From NCBI GenBank assembly GCA_000091205.1, contig AP006497.2: a stretch of DNA of 64,000 nucleotides; one strand, 5' to 3'. The stretch comes from Cyanidioschyzon merolae (taxonomy: Eukaryota). The notes under the pieces were generated by a model. The model saw only the letters and a program-made list of their open reading frames with translations, was not told the origin of the DNA and made no database searches. The position numbers and the translations under genes were made by a program. This document shows positions 1,053 through 59,436 of this stretch, piece by piece. How positions within the stretch are numbered: position 1 is the first letter of the stretch; every line of letters starts with the position of its first letter.

Positions 1053-1620
1053 AGCCTACGAATACGTCGACAGCTTACGACTCCTGCAAATGCGACTGGG
1101 GAGCGCAGTCGCACCGCGAGCCGATGCGCCTCCTGGGCAGCCGCTCGCGCTGCGCCACAGGCGCACGGCGTGTTACGAGCAGCACGCCTTGCGGCAGGCG
1201 CTGCTTCGCCTCGGCAGACCTGCTGGTCGTTTTGTGCACGAGGGTTGCAGCTGCACGTTCCATGTGGGTTGCTGAAGCGTCACGGCTGTATTGCCGTACG
1301 ATGAATGGCGGCGCATCCGGTGTTGCGCCTCACGCTAGGCGAAAGGCGACGCAGCAGTGGCACGATCCCTGGCGGGACTCGAACCGCTGCTCTCGCTACC
1401 GACTCTAGAACATAAAAGACGCACGTGTCGTGGACAGAGTTTGCATGTTTCCTGGTGAACTCCATTTGTCAAGCATGTTGGGTCGCATAGAGCGTGAGGC
1501 ACGCGCGGTTGCGTCTGTGCGGAACGCACACCCGTTTCGTTTCGGTGCTGCGCGCCCGAACGTGGACTGCGCGGTCGAGCCCCCAGACACCACGGCAGCG
1601 AACTGGATTTGGAATGGTAA

Positions 1621-1650
1621 CGATGATGGTGATGGTGATGGTGATGATGA
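1621..1650. repeat. (GATGGT)n hexanucleotide microsatellite; produces spurious poly-His ORFs on both strands
   Basis: gatggtgatggtgatggtgatgatg seen directly in sequence. Confidence 0.9.
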
Positions 1651-3699: not shown

Positions 3700-6600
3700 A
3701 GTACCGCAGCGCTATTCCTATTCCCTTATGCGCTACGACTCGATAGGTTTCGCATCATGGAATATTTGTGGGATAACCTCGAAACTATACGACGAGATAT
3801 CGAATTACCAGTACAGTAATGAAGAACTGATACACGTCGAGGACTGTACAAAAGGAAAAGAGATCCAACGGGATACGGAGAAGGAGACACAGAAACCTCA
3901 TGATCCACCTAGATGCAAAATAACCAGAGAAAGCAGCTCAGGAAAGAGCCCGAAGAAGAAGAAGACCAGCAAGAAAAAAACAGAAGAATAGAAAAAAGAA
4001 CTCCCAAACGAGCCCATCACAAGTTATCCCCTGAAAGGGCACCCCAGCGGGAACTCAAGAAAGCCGTCGCCGAACCCAGGCACCTGCTCACAGCGCTGAA
4101 GATCCGAAATGCCGTGCATGCAAATCTTTAGACCAATTGGCACGCGAGTTTGTAGATGGGAATCAGAAGACTGCCAGAGAACTGGGACTGCTTGCACCAG
4201 AACACAACAGTTGCAAACCTCAGTACCTCAAACGACGTACCAAAACTCGGATTGATGAATGCCACCGACTCAATAAGATCCTCAACCGCACCGCCATACG
4301 CGCCAACGCCGGAGACAAGGAAGCGAAGGCAGTCCCAACGGCGCTACAGGCACAACATGAGGAAGCTATCAAAAGAAAGAAGAAACGTTCCAGAGAAGAC
4401 AAACGAGGGGATCGAAACCGCAAAATCGCCTCCCTGGCGAAATCTATGCTCGAGAGCACCACCGAAGATGAGACCTGGCGCTACATTCGATCGAGACTGG
4501 ACCCACCAAAAAAGTGCTTGGGGCTCACACCAATCGTTTATAAGAAAGCGCTGAGGACGGAGAGTGCCTCAGTGAATGAGGCCTGGACGGACCACGGCAC
4601 AGAATTACATGAAGACGCAACTGGGCACTGCCGAAACCGAAACTATTGGCACCAATATGCTGCAGAACTACCACGCCTCGACCCGGTACCGGAATGGAAC
4701 GACCCAATCTTCTGGCCTGAATCTGTTCGGGCCCTGTTAAGCTCATGCAACCGCAAAACACCTGGCATTGACGGTATCGCTGCCGAGTGGATGAAACTGG
4801 TGATCCCAAAATACGAGACAACAGGGACACCATCGATACCAGATAAACCTGACACAATCTTAGGCAAACGCCTTCTGGAGCTCATCCAACGCATGTTTGA
4901 AGAAGCCTACATCCCTGATGTATGGAGGGCTGCCGAGGTCGCACCGATCCTCAAAAAGGACTCCCACATACACAGACACGAACAACTACCGGCCTATCGG
5001 CCTCATCCCGTCAATCATGAAGCTACTTTTGCGCCAACCTCACGAACCGGATCCAGAGAGGCCTCGAGGAACGCAAGTTCTTCGCCCCAGGGAGGGCTGG
5101 ATTCCGGAGCCGCGAGGAGTGCATGAGCCATGCCCTGACCCTCACTGAAGTGGCGCAACGTCGCTTTATTCGTGACCGACAACCAACTTACGTATGCTTC
5201 ATTGACTTCCAAAAGGCCTTTGACACGGTCCCGCACGAGGCCCTATTTTTGAAGATGGAACGAGCCGGAGTCTCCGCAAAGTGCTTGGCGTTCTTCCGTG
5301 CGCTCTCTGCAGACTCGTGGATGCGCATCCGACTGGGCGACGGCTGAAGAACCCCTTCCATAAGAATCCGCCGTGGACTGCGGCAGGGCGAGCGCGCATC
5401 CCCGCTCCGTTTTAACATCTTCATCAACGATCTGCTGAACAACTGCAGACAATTCGCGGCTGAGGCGCCGTGGATAGACTGTGGAGATGCTCGGTGAGGA
5501 GCGCCCACATGGGAACTGCCTCGAAGGCCTTCTACTTGCGGACGATGTCGTGCTGTTGGCACCCGCCCTGGAAACGCTTGCGGCTAGCATGGAACAAGTC
5601 AGCGCCTGGGCCGATCGCTGGGAGATGAACGTAGGAGCATCGAAGTGCGGCGTCATGGTCATCCATGGAGACTCGCAGAGCATTCGCAATCGCTCGTGGC
5701 GGTTGCAGAATCAGGAAATTCCGATCGTGGAAAAATATCGCTACCTGGGGGTCGGTCTCACGCCGACGCTCGACGAAAAGGCACACGTCGACGTGGTGAT
5801 CGCCAAGATGCATAGACGTACAGCGATCGCACGCCCAGTCCTATCCGACCCCTCTATCCCCTTAGCAATCCGTACCAGGGCACGAAGGATGTGTATCATC
5901 CAGCCTGCGACCTGGGGTGCTGAATGGTGCGGCATGAAGCACCCAAATGCCTCGCGTCTGCAGACAGCCGCCAACAGGGCAATGAGACTCGTTGTTGTTG
6001 GATGCTCAGTGCAGAGCAGAGCAACCACCCCGCTGGCACTCGGACCTGAACTCCAAATACTCTCAATAGAAGCGATAGCACCAGGTTGCCGGGCACGCAT
6101 ACGGGCCAAAGGGCGCACTATGCGCACCTCTTTGAGTCGGGTTTTCATGCAGACCCCAACGCACCGCAAGAACACTTGGATGAAATCAACGCAGATTTGG
6201 GTGAAGCGCCTCTTAGGAGACAACATGCTCCAATCGTTCCCCAGGAATACAGAATTCTCCCGTCGCCTGAAGCGAACGGTCCAAACAACAGTACGGGAAT
6301 GTAGACATGCAGTCAGTCGCGCCCTTAACGCCGGCTTGACTCTATACCGGAACTACAACCTAGCATACACATGCAAGTACTGGTGGGAGGCGCTGGAGTT
6401 CCCGGGACTTGCTCGAGGTACCCAGTGGCTCGCGAAAATCCGCGTTGGTGGCTTCTGGCTACCAGCACGGGCTCTAAGCCGTATGGGAACACTGGAATCG
6501 CACTGGGAATCACACTGTCCCTGCTGTGGGGATGAGACCCCCAAGACGCTGACATATTTAGGCTTACAGTGCCCGCGCTGGATGCAGGAGCGCAACGAGC

Positions 6601-31343: not shown

Positions 31344-32570
31344 ATGACCGACCTACGACCAACTTTCGGGAAGCGACCTCTGCGGCGCTCCGCAATACTG
31401 GAGCACTTGGCGGCAATTCGTTATCGTACGGGTCGCCGCTACCCTTGCGCCATACTGGACGGCGGCTTTGCTACCGAGATAGAACGATTAGGGCACGATC
31501 TGTCGACGACTGCAACCCAAGGAGAATGGGCAGCAGCCGTGCTTCACAAAGCGCCGCACGATGTGCAGCGAGTCCACAGGCGATACCTGGAAGCAGGTGC
31601 TGAAATCCTGACATCTGCCTCTTATCAGGCTTCTATGGCGAGCATTCCGACTGCAGTGGAGGTTCTAGCTCGGTCTCTTGATCGACTTGACACACAAGCG
31701 TCGTATGTACTGCGGGCTGTGTCGCTAGGCCCCCTGGCTGCTAGGCTTGGGGGCGGCCTCGAGTACCGCGGCTACGCGGATACCGAGCTATTTGCGGCGG
31801 GTGATGAGGCCGCACGTGAAACGTTTCGGCGGTATCACGAGCCGCGTATCGCTGCATGTGTACCGTTTTTTGCGGAAAACTCGAATGACCGGGATCTCAC
31901 GGGCGATGGCACGGTTCCGCGAGCTGACTTTATCCTCTTTGAAACCGTACCAGACGCCCTCGAGGCAACGTGTATTTCGGAGCTCATGACCAGTGATACG
32001 CGATTCGAGAACATACCGTGGGCCATATCGTTGCAGTGTCGACTGGCATCGTCATCGCCGCCTCTAGCGCCTGAGTCCTCAGAGCGCTGCACCAACATGC
32101 CGCAGCTGGCTGGCGGCGGCCCAGTACCCTCTGTTGTTGAAGAGTTGCTTGTGTCGAGTTTTGGGCCTGATCCCGAAAGCGGTACGCGAAACGGTCCGCT
32201 CTTCATTGGATTCAACTGCTGTCCTCCGTGGTTGATCCGCCCGATACTTGAAAGCCTCCAGCGGTGTCGTCATCCGCTGGCGCGACAGTGTGCTATCTTG
32301 TCCCGGACTTTGGAACGAACCGAGGTCAGGTCCGCTGACAAATGGGCAAACTTCGCCGGTTGGGCCGTGTACCCAAACTCGGGGGAAATGTGGGACCCCG
32401 GAACCCAGACTTGGGGACGCCCATCGGCCTCGACGCTGGATCCCGAAAACGACGCGTTTTGGCAGTATCACGTACCCGTGTGGAGCGCTCTTGGCGCTAC
32501 GATCATCGGTGGCTGCTGTAGAATCGGACCCCAGGGCATTTCAGCGTTGGCGCGTGTCGTTCTTGGATAG
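31344..32570 (+). CDS. homocysteine S-methyltransferase domain protein
   Basis: …CAILDGGFATEIERLGHDL…AGAEILTSASYQAS…IGFNCCPP…ATIIGGCCRIGPQGI (Hcy-binding domain with Zn-ligand Cys); the ORF extends upstream to 31245. Confidence 0.8.
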   Translation: MTDLRPTFGKRPLRRSAILEHLAAIRYRTGRRYPCAILDGGFATEIERLGHDLSTTATQGEWAAAVLHKAPHDVQRVHRRYLEAGAEILTSASYQASMASIPTAVEVLARSLDRLDTQASYVLRAVSLGPLAARLGGGLEYRGYADTELFAAGDEAARETFRRYHEPRIAACVPFFAENSNDRDLTGDGTVPRADFILFETVPDALEATCISELMTSDTRFENIPWAISLQCRLASSSPPLAPESSERCTNMPQLAGGGPVPSVVEELLVSSFGPDPESGTRNGPLFIGFNCCPPWLIRPILESLQRCRHPLARQCAILSRTLERTEVRSADKWANFAGWAVYPNSGEMWDPGTQTWGRPSASTLDPENDAFWQYHVPVWSALGATIIGGCCRIGPQGISALARVVLG

Positions 32571-33261
32571 ACGCAAGGTGTTGCGACTTCAGAATCGCGC
32601 TATTGTCTTCCATGAGCGGGTCTGTCGACCGCCGTAGATGCCGGGTGTAGCGACGGATCATTTGCGACTGGTCTGGTGCGTGCCAGCGTTCGTGCTGCGG
32701 GCCCTGCATCCTCGTTACCTGCAAAGCGACGCAGCATCTCTGGCCTCAGTACAAAGACGCCTTTCGAGAGCGTAATGGCATCAGGATGAGCTATGATCGC
32801 AACATGAGCCGGTAGCCTTTCCGCCTGCAAAGACTCGGAGCAACACGAACGCGGTGCGACGGTTCAGCCCAGGGGCGCCGACGATTGCAGCGATCTGCGA
32901 GCGACTCTTGCCTCTAGCATCTCAAGACGGAGACGTTTTCACACTGATGTCAGAGGAATGTTGCACGGGCGCGAGGAGAACCCGTACACGCCTGCGAAAA
33001 ACCCGAATGTCTATCTCGGGGGAACCGAACTTTCTCCCGTATCCACGTGTAATTCGTTCGATACATCGCCTGTGTTCATAAAAGATATCGTCATCTGCAG
33101 AGCGCACCTCCGCAGACGCCGCGGCAATTACATATCCCTCTGATCGTATGAGCACCGTACATGGATGAACCTCTTCGGCACCGGTGCCTATGAACAGCGC
33201 GTGCCCACGAGCTCTATGGCTACGCAGAACACGTGGCAGTGCCTGGTGGTGGCGACTTCGA

Positions 33262-34268
33262 GGGCCCTCCGGATACATTTGAAGGACTCGAAGGATCTCG
33301 ACTTTTATGGACGTGTTAGATCTAGGAGGACAGATCGACAGCTGTGCGCTGCTGGCGCGCGCCACGCGCTGGATACATATGCGGGACTGGAAGGAGCTCT
33401 ACGTTTATGGACAAGTTAGATCTAGGCGGCCAGATCGACAGCTATGCACTGCTGGCGCGCGCCACGCGCTGGATACATATGCGGGACTGGAAGGAGCTCT
33501 ACGTTTATGGACAAGTTAGATCTAGGCGGCCAGATCGACAGCTGTGCACTGCTGGCGCGCGCCACGCGCTGGATACATATGCGGGACTGGAAGGAGCTCG
33601 ACTTTTATAGACAAGTTAGATCTAGGCGGACAGATCGACAGCTGTGCACTGCTGGCGCGCGCCACGCGCTGGATACATATGCGGGACTGGAAGGAGCTCT
33701 ACTTTTATGGACGTGTTAGATCTAGGCGGACAGATCGACAGCTGTGCACTGCTGGCGCGCGCCACGCGCTGGATACATATGCGGGACTGGAAGGAGCTCT
33801 ACGTTTATGGACAAGTTAGATCTAGGCGGACAGATCGACAGCTGTGCACTGCTGGCGCGCGCCACGCGCTGGATACATATGCGGGACTGGAAGGAGCTCT
33901 ACTTTTATGGACGTGTTAGATCTAGGCGGACAGATCGACAGCTGTGCACTGCTGGCGCGCGCCACGCGCTGGATACATATGCGGGACTGGAAGGAGCTCT
34001 ACGTTTATGGACAAGTTAGATCTAGGCGGACAGATCGACAGCTGTGCACTGCTGGCGCGCGCCACGCGCTGGATACATATGCGGGACTGGAAGGAGCTCT
34101 ACTTTTATGGACGTGTTAGATCTAGGCGGACAGATCGACAGCTGTGCACTGCTGGCGCGCGCCACGCGCTGGATACATATGCGGGACTGGAAGGAGCTCT
34201 ACGTTTATGGACAAGTTAGATCTAGGCGGACAGATCGACAGCTGTGCACTGCTGGCGCGCGCCACGCG
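33262..34268. repeat. tandem minisatellite, ~10 units of 100 bp, organised as a 200-bp higher-order repeat (two alternating unit variants)
   Basis: unit ctggcgcgcgccacgcgctggatacatatgcgggactggaaggagctctac[g/t]tttatggac[aa/gt]gttagatctaggcggacagatcgacagctgtgcactg. ORF-track entries 100 bp apart (33344, 33444 … 34144) are artefacts of the period. Confidence 0.95.
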
Positions 34269-34328
34269 ATTCTCCATTGCATTATTTTGTTTTCCCGGCA
34301 AGGTGCCGTGTGTTGCAGCGTCTCTGCA

Positions 34329-35789
34329 ATGGAAACAGCAACGAGTTCACCGGAGCGAATGCTGGTGGGTTCTCTTATCCAGCTCATCCAAGCAGAGACA
34401 CGCCTGATTATGCTAGGATGGAAAGCGTCTGACCAAAATCAGCCGACGCTCCGAACCCAGCCCTTGCCGTGGTCGCCGAGGTCCGCTGCAGACGAGTTTG
34501 CGGAGCCGCTGCAGGCATACTTCGTCCTCGGCTGCGGGGGCGAACTGCGTGCGCCCGCTGCATGTGGCCGAGTCGTCGGCATCTACCACAGAGGCTTCGT
34601 GCGCTCCGTTCATGATAACGACGAGGTGCTCTATGCGGATGTGCGGCTCGTCGTTGTCCGTGAAGCCGGAAGCGCCCTCACCCCTGCCCTGGAACGAGCC
34701 TGGCTGCGTCTGGAAAACTGGGTTTCGCTCACAATAAAACAACAGAACGACCTCAACGCAGATGCGTCAACTGATGGCTGGCGGCGACGCTCAGAGTATT
34801 TTGAACGGATATGCCGAGACTTGACTCACCTTGCGCGAGAGCGAGACCGGCTTTTGAATCAGACCAGGGAGCGCTTGAACGTTGCGCGTCGATCACAGAT
34901 GCACCTGCGACGCGTCTTCGTCGAGGCCTTCGCTGGACACCTGCTCTGTTTCGAGTCATCTAGGCCGGATCAGGGTTTCGAAGGCGCATCTAGCGAAGCC
35001 GGTGCGAGTAAGTGCGATGCTGCATCCGCGTCTGAACCGGTGTTTTTTACTGGCCAACCGCTCGTGCTCTTGAACGACGCTCTCCCGAATGACCTGCCTG
35101 CTGATGGTGATGAGAAAGAGCATCATTCATGGCGTTGGCTCACGCACGATCTCTTTGGACGCTTTCGCATTCCATTGGGTAGACCGCCGGCGATCCAGTC
35201 GCTGGGCTGGCTCTATATTCCTGTGGTCGACGACGTCGGCAACGCGATTCGCGTTGAGGAGATTATTGAGGGGGATCCACCCACAACTGATCCGAAAACG
35301 AAGCGTTATTTGCATACGAAACCCATTCGTCTCGCACCGGACGTTGAGCGAGAGGTTCAGTTCCGGTTGACAGCAGCGAAACGCTGCTGCACGTGTATCC
35401 GCGAAACCGCGTGTGCCGGAGCGCCTGTGCAGCCGGATGCGAGCGGTACAGATGCCAGGTCTGCAAACCGACATGCCCTGCATTCCTGTGTAACATGCAG
35501 CGCGTGGGCACTAACCTGGCCCGGTGTCTTCGAAGTGACCAGTGATATGCTTCGAGGGTGGTCAAACTGGCAGGTCCACCAGAATCGTTCCGATGAGAAT
35601 ACGTTTACGTTTGCAGTGGACGGCACGGAGCGCGTGTATCGCGCTTGGTCGCGGCATGAACGCGATGTCATTGTGGCTTGTCTGCGCCACTGGCAAGAGG
35701 AGGCTCGCGCTGGTGCCCATGATCCGGGAGCCGCGTTGCCCGCAAGTGGAGTGCCCCTCAGCACTGGTTCAATGTTCCAAGACAAGTGA
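34329..35789 (+). CDS. hypothetical protein (486 aa) starting just after the minisatellite; C-terminal region resembles a PH/GRAM-like fold (weak)
   Basis: long ORF in GC-rich coding-like sequence; METATSSPERMLVGSLIQLIQ start is the first Met after the repeat array; no recognisable catalytic motif. Confidence 0.45.
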   Translation: METATSSPERMLVGSLIQLIQAETRLIMLGWKASDQNQPTLRTQPLPWSPRSAADEFAEPLQAYFVLGCGGELRAPAACGRVVGIYHRGFVRSVHDNDEVLYADVRLVVVREAGSALTPALERAWLRLENWVSLTIKQQNDLNADASTDGWRRRSEYFERICRDLTHLARERDRLLNQTRERLNVARRSQMHLRRVFVEAFAGHLLCFESSRPDQGFEGASSEAGASKCDAASASEPVFFTGQPLVLLNDALPNDLPADGDEKEHHSWRWLTHDLFGRFRIPLGRPPAIQSLGWLYIPVVDDVGNAIRVEEIIEGDPPTTDPKTKRYLHTKPIRLAPDVEREVQFRLTAAKRCCTCIRETACAGAPVQPDASGTDARSANRHALHSCVTCSAWALTWPGVFEVTSDMLRGWSNWQVHQNRSDENTFTFAVDGTERVYRAWSRHERDVIVACLRHWQEEARAGAHDPGAALPASGVPLSTGSMFQDK

Positions 35790-38186: not shown

Positions 38187-39014
38187 ATGAGCAGCATCTG
38201 GTCACGTTTGACAGATAAGCGAAGATCGAACAAACCAGACGACGCTTCCGGTGAGAAGTCGGATATTCTTGGAGCTGGAACCTCGTTAGACTCACGAGCG
38301 GACCCGGCACCGGACCACTTGTGGGCACAGGTCGACCAAGTTGACAGCGTCCCCGATATCGAAGAAGAGAACGGACCCCGAGTGGATTTTTCGAACTTGG
38401 ACAGAATACAAGCGGAGACTGTGGCTCCAGCGTTGGGCATTTATGCGACGCCGCGGGGCAAGTCCGGCGAAGTGGATTACTTGTTCGCGGAGGAGTATCA
38501 CGAGTATCGCCATAAGAGCTGGGGCGAGCAACTCACCTTCTGGGCAGGGGTGAGTTATTTAGGCGGTGCGATAATTGGAGGCTCGTTAGGGTTTCGTGAA
38601 GGCATCCAGAAAGGAAACGAAATGGTCGCGGAGCTTGTGTCGCCAGTGACAGGAGCTGGCGGCGGCCCCAAAGCCGCAACTTCGCTGTCAGTCTCGCATG
38701 TATCCAAGGCAAAGCTTCGACTCAACGCACTGCTCAATGCAGTAGGTCGACGCGGCGGTCGCATGGGTAATGCTGCAGGCGTCTTAGCGATCATGTTCTC
38801 GGGATTTGAGTCGTTTCTGCACTGGCTCCGCGATGACGTCGACGACTCGTGGAATTACATTGGTGCCGGAGCGCTGACTGGCGCGCTCTACAAGTCCACC
38901 GCAGGTCTACGGGCAGTGTCTATGTGGAGCGCAGGGCTGGCGACTGTCGGCCTCGTTGGCCTGTACGGAGCCAGACGAGGGGTCTACGGCCGGCGGTTAC
39001 GGCAACTGCTCTAA
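38187..39014 (+). CDS. Tim17/Tim22/Tim23 (PRAT) family protein, Tim23-like mitochondrial inner-membrane translocase subunit
   Basis: …YLFAEEY…RHKSWGEQLTFWAGVSYLGGAIIGGSLGFREG…KLRLNALLNAVGRRGGRMGNAAGVLAIMFSGFES…DDSWNYIGAGALTGALYKSTAGLRA; start taken at MSSIWSRL (the ORF extends to 37776). Confidence 0.7.
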   Translation: MSSIWSRLTDKRRSNKPDDASGEKSDILGAGTSLDSRADPAPDHLWAQVDQVDSVPDIEEENGPRVDFSNLDRIQAETVAPALGIYATPRGKSGEVDYLFAEEYHEYRHKSWGEQLTFWAGVSYLGGAIIGGSLGFREGIQKGNEMVAELVSPVTGAGGGPKAATSLSVSHVSKAKLRLNALLNAVGRRGGRMGNAAGVLAIMFSGFESFLHWLRDDVDDSWNYIGAGALTGALYKSTAGLRAVSMWSAGLATVGLVGLYGARRGVYGRRLRQLL

Positions 39015-39080
39015 GCAGGTAGGCGGTGGTGTTGGGCGTCACGTAGACGGGCACAGCTCGGGAACGCCGCAACCTACGCT

Positions 39081-39120
39081 CATGGTGGTGATGGTGATGG
39101 TGCTGATGGTGGTGCTGGCG
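39081..39120. repeat. (ATGGTG)n hexanucleotide microsatellite (same motif as at 1621-1650); yields a spurious poly-His antisense ORF
   Basis: catggtggtgatggtgatggtgctgatggtggtgctg. Confidence 0.9.
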
Positions 39121-40187
39121 GCCGCCTCTATCGTTGGCATGTTGCGCGATGGCTTGCTCTGAGAAGCGCGCAACTCCTTCGATGGATCCAGACTCGGGCG
39201 ATGTGCGCTGCGCGCAAGCCCTGGGTACGCCCGCGCAAAGCCTCGTATTGCTGGCGACAAGTACCCGATTTCCATACATTGTACTATGCTCGGCTTTCGG
39301 TTGAAAACGGAGACACGCGCGTTGCCCTGTGTACAGCGCAGCATGCGCAGCAGCGCGAAAGCAGTAGCAGCTTCCGGCATGAGCACTGGACGCAGGTCAA
39401 GCTTCGTCAAGCCTCAGATGCTTCAATGGACCAGGCTCGATGTCAACGAGTCCAAGGCACGATCCACATGACAGGTTGGCACCTGGGGATCCCCGAGGGA
39501 ATGCAGCGCAGATGCTGTATCAGAGAAGTTCATTGACGGATCCGAATATTTTCGTTCACACTTGAAGCAGAGAGACAAGCACCGCTCTGTTTGAGGCTGT
39601 TGAGCTGCCGTTGAATAGGAAAATTCGTGAAGATACGATCGTCGTGTAGTGAGCCCCTGGGCTGCAACTCCGCTCCCTGAGCGAATCAGTTCGTTCGCCT
39701 GCTCGGACGGACCTGGGGTCGGATGTTCCAGGCCTCAGCTCAAACGCTAAAGGACCTTTGCTCCCTTGCTCTTGCACAGCCGCGGGCACACGCTGGTGAT
39801 GCAGTGAGCTCTTGAGTCGCATATCGATCCCAAATGCGAATCAAGGCGTTTACATGCTCGGACGGCGCTGGGGTGTGCTGTTCCAGGCGCCCGGCATACC
39901 GATAAAGGCACCTCACTCCGTGGTGATGCTGTTGTCGCTTCCCCATCGAGTCTACCAAGTTGGAGAGGCGGCAATGCCGGCGTGCACAGCTGCTCGCTGG
40001 CACCGCGGCTTCCCTGCCGTTTCCGACCGACCAGCATATTATCGTTTCCGATCGCAACGCTTGGACTCGTAAAAGCGAGCCAGTGCTCCAGCAACCTGCT
40101 TCACCGTTTTGAGTGAAACTGCTTCCTACTGAAGCCTGCCGCAGGCGTCGGCATTGCCACATGGAGCCGCTCGTGCCCGCGCGTGCT

Positions 40188-41750: not shown

Positions 41751-42383
41751 GGCAGAGTCTTCCTCCGCAAAGTGGTTGCCGAATGGACGTCCGATCCGGT
41801 GAACGCTCGCACTGCTACGAATTCGGCACAAAAACACCACAACAGTGTGTTCTCTGGCAAGCGCAGCAGCAAGCGTATACCGCAGCAACGCCTATCATCA
41901 GCTGTGGGGAAAACACCCCTGCGAGTCTCCCGTTCAAGGTACTGCTGATCAAGCCGACTGCTGTTGCGAGTCTCTCTGTCTCTCTCTGTCTCTATCTCAG
42001 CGGTCCGGTTTTCGGTGATAGGTGTACCCAGTCACTCGGTGGTGTTGCAGCCGTAGAACCCTCGGGGCACCTTCCGTAGCAACTTCCGCTGATCCGTTCG
42101 AACTGCTTGTGCGAGTGTCTATTTCAGTCACCCTGTTTCCGGTGATATGTTAACCAGCCACTCAGACCGCTAGCAGTACTTGATCTTTGGGAGTTTCTCG
42201 TAATAGTTCGTGAAGATCAGTCCGAATCGCTTGCACGAGTCACTCAGGATGCTTCCAGTACTAGACTAGAGGACGTTCGTATCCGTCTGGCGGTCGAGAT
42301 TCGTCTAGCCCAGCAGGGTCGCGGCGAGTCGCTACTGGGAGGACGCGCTGCAGACTGCGCGGGAAAGCCATGAACAGGAGGCG

Positions 42384-49299: not shown

Positions 49300-49640
49300 C
49301 ACATTTACGATCATGCGCCACCCAAGTACGCGCACAGTCGTCCATGCAGTGTTCAGCACCTGGAGCGAACGCAGCAAATGAGACTCCAGCGCAAGTCACA
49401 TACACTAGTACGCGCACAGTGGTCCATGCAGTGTTCAGCGCTTGGAGCGAACGCAGCAAATGAGACTCCTGCGCAAGTCACATACACTAGTACGCGCACA
49501 GTGGTCCATGCAGTGTTCAGCGCTTGGAGCGAACGCAGCAAATGAGACTCCTGCGCAAGTCACATACACCAGTACGCGCACAGTGGTCCATGCAGTGTTC
49601 AGCGCTTGGAGCGAACGCAGCAAATGAGACTCCTGCGCAA
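49300..49640. repeat. tandem repeat, 82-bp unit x ~4
   Basis: unit cgcacagtggtccatgcagtgttcagcgcttggagcgaacgcagcaaatgagactcctgcgcaagtcacatacactagta; overlapping ORFs on both strands offset by 82 bp. Confidence 0.9.
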
Positions 49641-49998
49641 GTCAGATACACAAGTAGGCACATGTAAGCGCGCGTCCATCGGATCGCTTGACGCGTTATG
49701 GGCGCACCCTGCCGTTCCGTCCGCATAGACACGTTCATGATCTCGACGTTGGAGATAAGTTGAACAAAGGCCCATATTTCTGGACTATCCCCACGGCGCC
49801 TACTCCAGATCTTGCAAAGCACACGGGCGCGAGGGTCTCGGGTTCCGCGCAGTGCACCCGGCGACGCGGGGGTTGCATGTCCATCGAGACATATTTGTAC
49901 AACTGTGGAGGTGCATCCCAGCGCCTCGATGGGCGCACGCTGTATCGAGTCAACAGGCTTTTATTCTCTAGTATTGGTGTGCGCTACCGCGTGCCCTT

Positions 49999-58099: not shown

Positions 58100-58440
58100 C
58101 CGGCAGCATCGCGGAAAGTGTCCATATATGCTTGCAAGGAGGAACGCACACGCCGACATCGCGGATCGATGCTTTTGACGCCGTATCGATCGCGATGGTG
58201 ATGCGTCTTTCTGTGTGGAACATGTCCATATATGCTTGCAAGGAGGAACGTACACGCCGACATCGCGGATCGATGCTTTTGACGCCGTATCGATCGCGAT
58301 GGTGATGCGTCTTTCTGTGTGGAACATGTCCATATATGCTTGCAAGGAGGAACGTACACCCCGACATCGCGGATCGATGCTTTTGACGCCGTATCGATCG
58401 CGATGGTGATGCGTCTTTCTGTGTGGAACATGTCTTTGTA
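58100..58440. repeat. tandem repeat, 104-bp unit x ~3.3
   Basis: unit catgtccatatatgcttgcaaggaggaacgtacacgccgacatcgcggatcgatgcttttgacgccgtatcgatcgcgatggtgatgcgtctttctgtgtggaa at 58123, 58227 and 58331. Confidence 0.9.
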
Positions 58441-59436
58441 TGCTTACAAGGAGTAGTGCAGACCCAGGCATTTTAAAGAAATCCAGTGAGCATTCGACAA
58501 AAGACTCACATTCATAATAGCTCGATTCGTGTCTTGCGCTCCTTTCGATGAAATTGAACCTCTTCGCAAGATCGCCGTCTCTTTTCGAGAATGATTTTGA
58601 GTCGACCACCCCGGAGCTTTTCGATTAAAGCCTATTGCTACCCTGGTGCGCCTATTTACTGCATCGATTGCACAGGCATCCGAATAATCTCTAGCTCCGG
58701 AGAAGCGCACAGACTCGTGGACTCTGTAGAGACGACACCGCCTATGCAAGACTTGACCATATTTCAGATTATCTGACGTGCATCGCAGCAGCTCGAATAG
58801 CCGTGATTCAGCGACGTTGCAAATTCATGGCTCCCGTGGTATCACGAGGTGGGTTCCAGGACACACGTGCGCCCAAAAATGTTTACAACTCTCGTCAGCT
58901 GCTAGCCGCACTATTGCAGACAACTTGCCAGGGGCATCGCCCTCTCGCGGAATCAATCAGCCAACAGTCGTCCGCGTTCGCTGGATTATACTCTGGTAGG
59001 TCAAGGCGATTCGGTTTGTTTCGACTGGAATTGAACGCAATCCATATAAGTTCCCCATCGGATTTCCTGGGATTTGCACGCTGAAGAAAACATAGCGTGC
59101 GAAGCATCCGTCGATCATTAGCGTCATGGCGGCAAACTGTATCGCCCATGTCAAATCTGGCGCAAGGCGCGCTTCGTCTTGCTGCTCATGTTGCTACAGT
59201 CGCAAGTAGACACATCCCAGAACTTAAACCATATGAGCGAACGAGGTATACGTTCCTGGTTACCGCACAGCAGCACTGGTACAAGATCGCTTGTCATCTG
59301 CAAAAAGCGCTGGCTGGCGCGCCGGAGTCCTCTCTGCGCCTGGCCAGGGCGACGACACGACACGTTGCCCAGAGACTGCACAGCATAACAACGCAATAAC
59401 GCATTTTGAGGATTGATGTTGCACCTTGTAACAATC

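Follow-up and report, generated by a model that had tools for sequence, protein, structure and literature searches.

Hypervariable minisatellites, such as the human MS32- and INS-VNTR-type loci and those of yeast and other fungi, are kilobase-scale, single-locus arrays in which repeat units, each between tens of bp and about 100 bp long, follow one another head to tail, in which copy number varies among conspecifics, in which variant units are interspersed in an allele-specific order and in which the edge unit is the most diverged. The array described here, which lies upstream of the gene CMO309C in the alga Cyanidioschyzon merolae, shares all of these features, although its unit, with 100 bp, is near the upper limit of that length, shows no G-richness on one strand and lacks an obvious core motif, and although its polymorphism is known from short-read environmental assemblies only. 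A second comparable system is found in yeast promoters, where unstable tandem repeats are said to tune expression, as Vinces et al. reportedly described in Science in 2009; like the present array, these repeats are proximal to a downstream gene, vary in copy number among strains and thereby alter both the spacing and the number of promoter elements. The units of the yeast promoter repeats are, however, mostly much shorter than 100 bp, whereas the unit here is 100 bp long and the array is known from sequence alone. Higher-order repeat satellites, of which the primate alpha satellite is an example, likewise contain multimers that are more alike than adjacent monomers, but the locus considered here holds only three higher-order copies within 1 kb at one site, which is neither centromeric nor of megabase scale.

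The genome papers emphasise the scarcity of repeats in C. merolae (PMC1955436), and our literature search found no paper on intergenic minisatellites of this alga or on the array upstream of CMO309C. The window analysed is a single 64-kb stretch of DNA that exact protein look-ups identify as part of chromosome 15 of C. merolae 10D, a record of 902,900 bp; its genes are intron-free and lie on both strands, and its GC content is about 55%. The array within it is probably a hypervariable minisatellite (VNTR) of recent origin, confined to a single locus in the intergenic spacer 5' of CMO309C.

Genomic context of the array

The array begins 700 bp after the stop codon of CMO308C and ends 60 bp before the annotated ATG of CMO309C and 22 bp from a conserved TTTTCCCGGC (Table 1). 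Its placement in the 5' proximal region of a gene, as given in the preliminary description, is therefore correct, and the first Met of the 486-aa ORF at 34329 that was named there is the annotated start. The surrounding genes encode a CCDC47-like protein, ribosomal protein L7, a Tim17-family protein, Clp1 and the DNA primase small subunit. CMO309C has no Pfam match and no significant PDB match (E = 0.8), and its homologues, at 47%, 42% and 34% identity, occur only in related Cyanidiaceae, that is in Cyanidium (including Cyanidium caldarium), Cyanidiococcus and Cyanidioschyzon-type algae. The gene order methyltransferase, CMO309C homologue and L7 is kept in distant relatives, with Tim17 and Clp1 also in order at the two relative loci that reach that far. 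The spacer measures 700-775 bp in the relatives, about 860 bp in the one-unit alleles of C. merolae and 1,758 bp in 10D. No tandem repeat was found in the orthologous spacers of the distant relatives, to which the unit cannot be aligned beyond short motifs, and the ancestral state of those palindromes that vary within the array is for this reason not polarisable.

Table 1. Coordinates of the array, its parts, neighbouring features and further arrays (window positions unless a contig is named).
Feature	Position	Strand	Basis or remark
Minisatellite array, 10 head-to-tail 100-bp units	33271..34268	.	TRF; units aligned in register
Unit 0, edge unit	33271..33370	.	In-register print; palindrome count; allele extraction
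Units 1-3	33371..33670	.	In-register print; allele extraction
Three 200-bp A/B dimers, units 4-9	33671..34268	.	In-register print
Array-to-ATG spacer, 60 bp, including TTTTCCCGGC (34290..34299)	34269..34328	+	Orthologue comparison
CMO308C, homocysteine S-methyltransferase	31344..32570	+	Protein look-up and annotation
CMO309C, 486-aa hypothetical protein	34329..35789	+	Exact protein look-up
Upstream module in other lineages	L030 ~4916-4945; L033 ~4943-4975		
82 bp x 4 array	49325..49656		369 bp 5' of CMO316C ATG (50026)
104 bp x 3.2 array	58119..58453		162 bp 5' of minus-strand gene, ATG 57956

Organization of the units and their palindromes

TRF delimited one array at this position, with a period of 100, 10.0 copies, 95% matches, 0% indels and a score of 1814, which bears out the earlier impression of about ten near-identical 100-bp units, although the start falls at 33271 and not at 33262. 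When the units are set in register, units 4, 6 and 8 are mutually identical and represent the A type (ACTTTTATGGACGTG), and units 5 and 7 are identical and represent the B type (ACGTTTATGGACAAG), from which unit 9 is off by a single base, its penultimate, located at the boundary between array and flank. The two types differ at 3 of 100 positions, and multimers are accordingly more homogeneous than monomers in this part of the array, with 100% identity between dimers versus 97% between adjacent monomers; these dimers appear to be the product of the latest amplification. The A/B alternation is absent from units 0-3: unit 0, with 10 differences from the consensus, is the most diverged of all units and is devoid of CATATG and GAGCTC; units 1 and 2 each resemble the B type, with private changes (GGCGGCCAG), to which unit 1 adds ACAGCTAT; and unit 3 is a hybrid (GAGCTCGACTTTTATAGACAAG) of a type that is also present in wild alleles. 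Thus, the 200-bp higher-order repeat that had been proposed for the whole array holds for its last six units, as three dimers, but not for the first four.

Interior units carry six palindromes, namely CATATG, GAGCTC, TAGATCTA, ACAGCTGT, GTGCAC and the 12-bp TGGCGCGCGCCA, so that the five reported previously were real but under-counted, and the longest spans 12 bp instead of 10. There are 8 palindromic centres per interior unit versus 1.6 expected per 100 bp, a value reached by none of the background 100-bp windows (0/2476) and associated with P ~4e-4 in a first-order Markov simulation, in line with the earlier view that their density is above chance. Since all units were copied from one founder, this excess represents a single 100-bp observation and not ten. 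Only three of the six palindromes are found in unit 0. TAGATCTA, ACAGCTGT and TGGCGCGCGCCA are unchanged in all units of all alleles and have no occurrence outside the array in the 64-kb window; the remaining three differ from one unit or allele to another (GAGCTC/GATCTC, GTGCAC/GTGCGC and CATATG/CATTTG). Palindrome richness was not found in upstream regions in general. Folding of the 200-bp dimer as single-stranded DNA gave a stability not above that of shuffled sequences (z = -0.79), and a special propensity for hairpins or cruciforms is hence unsupported. The 100-bp unit also contains restriction sites for NdeI, SacI, BglII, PvuII, ApaLI and BssHII.

With regard to locus specificity, JGI metagenome contigs were scanned with a gapped pattern derived from two invariant parts of the unit; three contigs matched, and all three represent this locus. 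A blastn search of the unit against a phage collection matched nothing. Across the JGI metagenome contigs and the 64-kb window, the array is a single-locus element.

Allelic variation in wild contigs

Wild contigs were fetched through near-identical copies of CMO309C and CMO308C, and alleles were extracted flank to flank. These contigs, which are environmental and were counted as conspecific, are 99.2-99.6% identical to the window, in agreement with the published intraspecific divergence of C. merolae of 0.59-0.71% (PMC13353863). One unit was found in three samples (L001/L010, L012 and L024), two units in five (L003/L021, L004/L011, L007, L013 and L020) and three units in one (L022), and L009/L014 has at least 4.4 units, its contig ending inside the array; the exact counts of 1, 2 and 3 are unproven, as every copy number other than that of the reference was taken from a short-read assembly, a kind of assembly prone to collapse or under-count tandem repeats, and the figure of 10 copies comes from the reference alone. 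Many further contigs end in or at the array (L008, L015-L018, L023, L025 and L026). The copy-number variability anticipated in the preliminary description is thus seen at one locus as 1, 2, 3, at least 4.4 and 10 units.

The first unit is of the unit-0 type in every allele and is the sole unit of the one-copy alleles. Several wild alleles contain a GATCTCTACTTGTATGG unit type (T25/G34) that does not occur in 10D, and other wild alleles combine the A, B and hybrid units known from 10D in an order of their own; the interspersion of the unit types 0, A, B, H and T25/G34 is allele-specific, as in VNTRs. The presence of unit variants that are missing from 10D indicates that the wild alleles are distinct and not collapsed copies of the 10D array. 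Assembly of the one-unit junction requires reads in which bases specific to unit 0 and the 3' flank are joined within a single 141-mer, and there are good grounds to regard the one-unit allele as real.

A conserved module upstream of CMO309C

A module consisting of GGCGCGC, 13-30 nt and then RTTTTCCCSGC is present upstream of CMO309C orthologues in three lineages, with GGCGCGC located at -55 to -85 in all three and occurring once per orthologous promoter. The second element of the module in C. merolae, at 34290..34299, lies just beyond the array, and GGCGCGC there constitutes the core of the 12-bp palindrome of the unit (34253..34264); TTTTCCCGGC has 1 occurrence in the window versus 0.05 expected. 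As GGCGCGC is common to the unit and the orthologous promoters, the duplicated segment was probably promoter-proximal DNA that included a conserved cis element. The ten units multiply the GGCGCGC-containing element and shift the remaining upstream DNA 900 bp farther from CMO309C, and a regulatory consequence is plausible given that two other lineages have GGCGCGC about as far from the ATG.

The TTTTCCCGGC/GGCGCGC module presumably resembles E2F-type sites. The E2F-type motif TTTSSCGS is not enriched in the window (31 matches vs 25 expected), and CMO308C, CMO309C and CMO310C are not among the genes listed in the supplements of the E2F-knockdown paper. One of these 31 matches, TTTCCCGC on the minus strand at 42359..42366, precedes the ORF of the DNA primase small subunit by 18 bp, a location that would be compatible with an E2F-type site in front of an S-phase gene.

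Other arrays and junctions in the window

Two other arrays are present in the window (Table 1). The 82-bp array, whose first unit is without the AGCGCT and TGCGCA palindromes of its interior units, has three units with differing variants in L037 and L038 and is thus a VNTR as well. The 104-bp array comprises 2.2 units in L035 and no fewer than 4.95 in both L038 and L039, and the palindromes of its unit (CATATATG, ATCGCGAT, CTTGCAAG, ATCGAT and CGATCG) place it in the top 0.1-0.6% of background windows. The possibility that the three arrays form one repeat family was rejected, as they show no mutual similarity above shuffles. Because two unrelated arrays of the same window vary too, copy-number-variable arrays represent a general mutational class. 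All three arrays are situated in head-to-tail intergenic spacers and are closer to the downstream start, their distances to the ATG being 60, 369 and 162 bp, versus 700, 1109 and 983 bp to the upstream stop; this 5'-proximal bias, seen in three of three cases, is suggestive only (Fisher combination, P ~0.07).

Related contigs contain further minisatellites of 77 bp x 1.9 (L002, 321..466) and 140 bp x 2.4 (L031, 66..403), which suggests that arrays of this kind are frequent in genomes that otherwise have few repeats. Short repeats of the ATGGTG type, of 15 bp and 12 bp, occur in the window at 39082..39111 and 1614..1650, and the former encodes on the minus strand the histidine run HHHQHHHHHHH in an unannotated 119-aa ORF (38920..39279).

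Three contigs diverge from the window close to gene starts, L002 at 5996, L006 at 162 and L036 at 8252 (window 34324, 34287 and 50007), which places the break points 5, 42 and 19 bp upstream of the starts of CMO309C and CMO316C. L002 and L036 run into genes whose 10D orthologues are on other chromosomes (records of 1,253,087 and 1,282,939 bp, the genes of the latter including CMS434C), and L006 departs from the window over its first 161 bp. These junctions reflect chimeric assembly or else genuine rearrangement; the published differences between 10D and a Yellowstone strain include a translocation and an inversion (PMC13353863).

Origin of the array and alternative explanations

The founder of the array would have been a 100-bp stretch of unique promoter-proximal DNA that was tandemly duplicated and that would still be single-copy in some wild genotypes. 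Copy number would then have moved up and down through unequal homologous exchange between misaligned units, replication slippage or both, and the latest events in the 10D lineage would have been two amplifications in 200-bp steps, giving rise to the three A/B dimers. We infer unequal exchange or slippage as the mutational mechanism from the diverged edge unit, the homogeneous interior, the allele-specific interspersion and the amplification in two-unit steps. In this regard, C. merolae possesses efficient homologous recombination, including the excision of direct repeats, as well as meiotic recombination (PMC13353863). The palindromes probably hitchhiked from the founding segment and are then not the cause of the array. 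The array is most likely close to neutral, and any effect that it has would be exerted through promoter architecture. Two findings run counter to neutrality: three palindromes are invariant everywhere, which this explanation does not predict yet which is allowed in a young array, and no other 100-bp window tested here is as rich in palindromes as the unit.

An alternative would make the array a copy-number-tunable cis-regulatory element, in which every unit supplied sites for dimeric transcription factors and the number of units set the expression of CMO309C, an interpretation that we consider unlikely. It would accord with a position 60 bp from the ATG and directly 5' of the conserved TTTTCCCGGC, with the palindrome excess of the unit, with the constancy of TAGATCTA, ACAGCTGT and TGGCGCGCGCCA, with GGCGCGC at a similar position in three lineages and with the bias of all three window arrays towards the start of the gene that follows. 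The candidate sites would be the E-boxes CATATG/CAGCTG and a GC-rich palindrome like the GGCGCGC of the orthologues. One-unit alleles are common, however, which makes the array as such dispensable, and distant relatives have no array at all; GAGCTC, GTGCAC and CATATG change from unit to unit and from allele to allele; the long palindromes are missing from the other upstream regions of the window; upstream regions in general show no palindrome richness, and the window shows no TTTSSCGS enrichment; and the literature search found no expression or binding data and no mention of CMO309C. The array of dimeric protein-binding sites envisaged in the preliminary description is thus not supported: half of the palindromes are variable, the long ones are confined to the array within the window, and one-unit alleles and array-free relatives exist. 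A broader proposal would hold that C. merolae promoters host a class of hypervariable 80-140-bp minisatellites, seeded from palindrome-rich, factor-binding and nucleosome-free segments that are hot spots of recombination breaks, that their copy number tunes the adjacent gene and that their sites are preferred breakpoints of inter-strain rearrangements. It would fit the variability and 5' proximity of three of three arrays, the palindrome richness of two of them and the three wild contigs that switch sequence 5-42 bp upstream of starts, two of them to another chromosome, these start codons being downstream of two of the window arrays; we nonetheless regard this proposal, taken as a whole, as improbable.

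The dimeric pattern of the last six units could also recall a chromosome-structural satellite with a centromeric or architectural role, an option that had been raised at the outset, but the array spans 1 kb only, was placed at this locus alone by the metagenome scan, lies in a gene-dense site between two expressed-type genes and consists of a single unit in some genotypes while being absent from relatives, so that a structural satellite has hardly any probability. An error of the reference in the array or its copy number, that is the assembly collapse that had been named as a possible refutation, is very unlikely: identical tandem units are hard to assemble and many short-read contigs break here, yet arrays of 2, 3 and at least 4.4 units with ordered variants were recovered independently in the assemblies of several projects, and the 10D reference was finished with Sanger and BAC sequencing (PMC1955436). 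The existence of the array is secure, and the exact number of 10 is the count in the reference. It is likewise scarcely conceivable that the array encodes an N-terminal extension of CMO309C or a structured RNA. ORF finders do run into it, yielding a 581-aa ORF with a GTG start in the window (34044..35789) and calls of 560 and 574 aa in wild contigs (among them L001 6001..7725 and L003 3268..4950), the length of which depends on copy number. As 100 bp is not a multiple of 3, however, the reading frame shifts from each unit to the next and is closed before 34044; copy number varies in steps of one unit, and the orthologues begin at the equivalent of the ATG at 34329. Neither Rfam at a relaxed threshold nor ARAGORN returned a structured RNA or tRNA match in the region or the window, and the fold z-score given above argues in the same direction. 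The array is non-coding, given the unit length, the frame and the variable copy number, and the 560-, 574- and 581-aa database proteins are artefacts of ORF finders and prokaryotic gene callers. A 147-aa ORF on the minus strand (32922..33365), called with 118 aa in several wild contigs, lies partly in unit 0 and partly in the left flank; it has no Pfam hit recorded in the wild contigs and is probably spurious.

Concluding remarks

Taken singly, the array matters little, being an ordinary variable minisatellite of a published genome upstream of a gene for a hypothetical protein. It explains, on the other hand, the 560-581-aa versions that prokaryote-style gene callers return for a protein of 486 aa, as well as the breaks of short-read assemblies at this locus. 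The genome of C. merolae has been described as unusually simple and poor in repeats, and yet three independently variable minisatellites are found within 64 kb of it. The three arrays could serve as cheap PCR-sizing markers for strains, haplotypes and crosses, with the restriction sites of the unit making sizing and ladder assays easy, and such use is timely, as C. merolae is now known to have a sexual cycle and to occur as diploids in the wild. If copy number affects the expression of CMO309C, the alleles of 1 to 10 units would constitute a natural allelic series of promoter architecture in a tractable alga.
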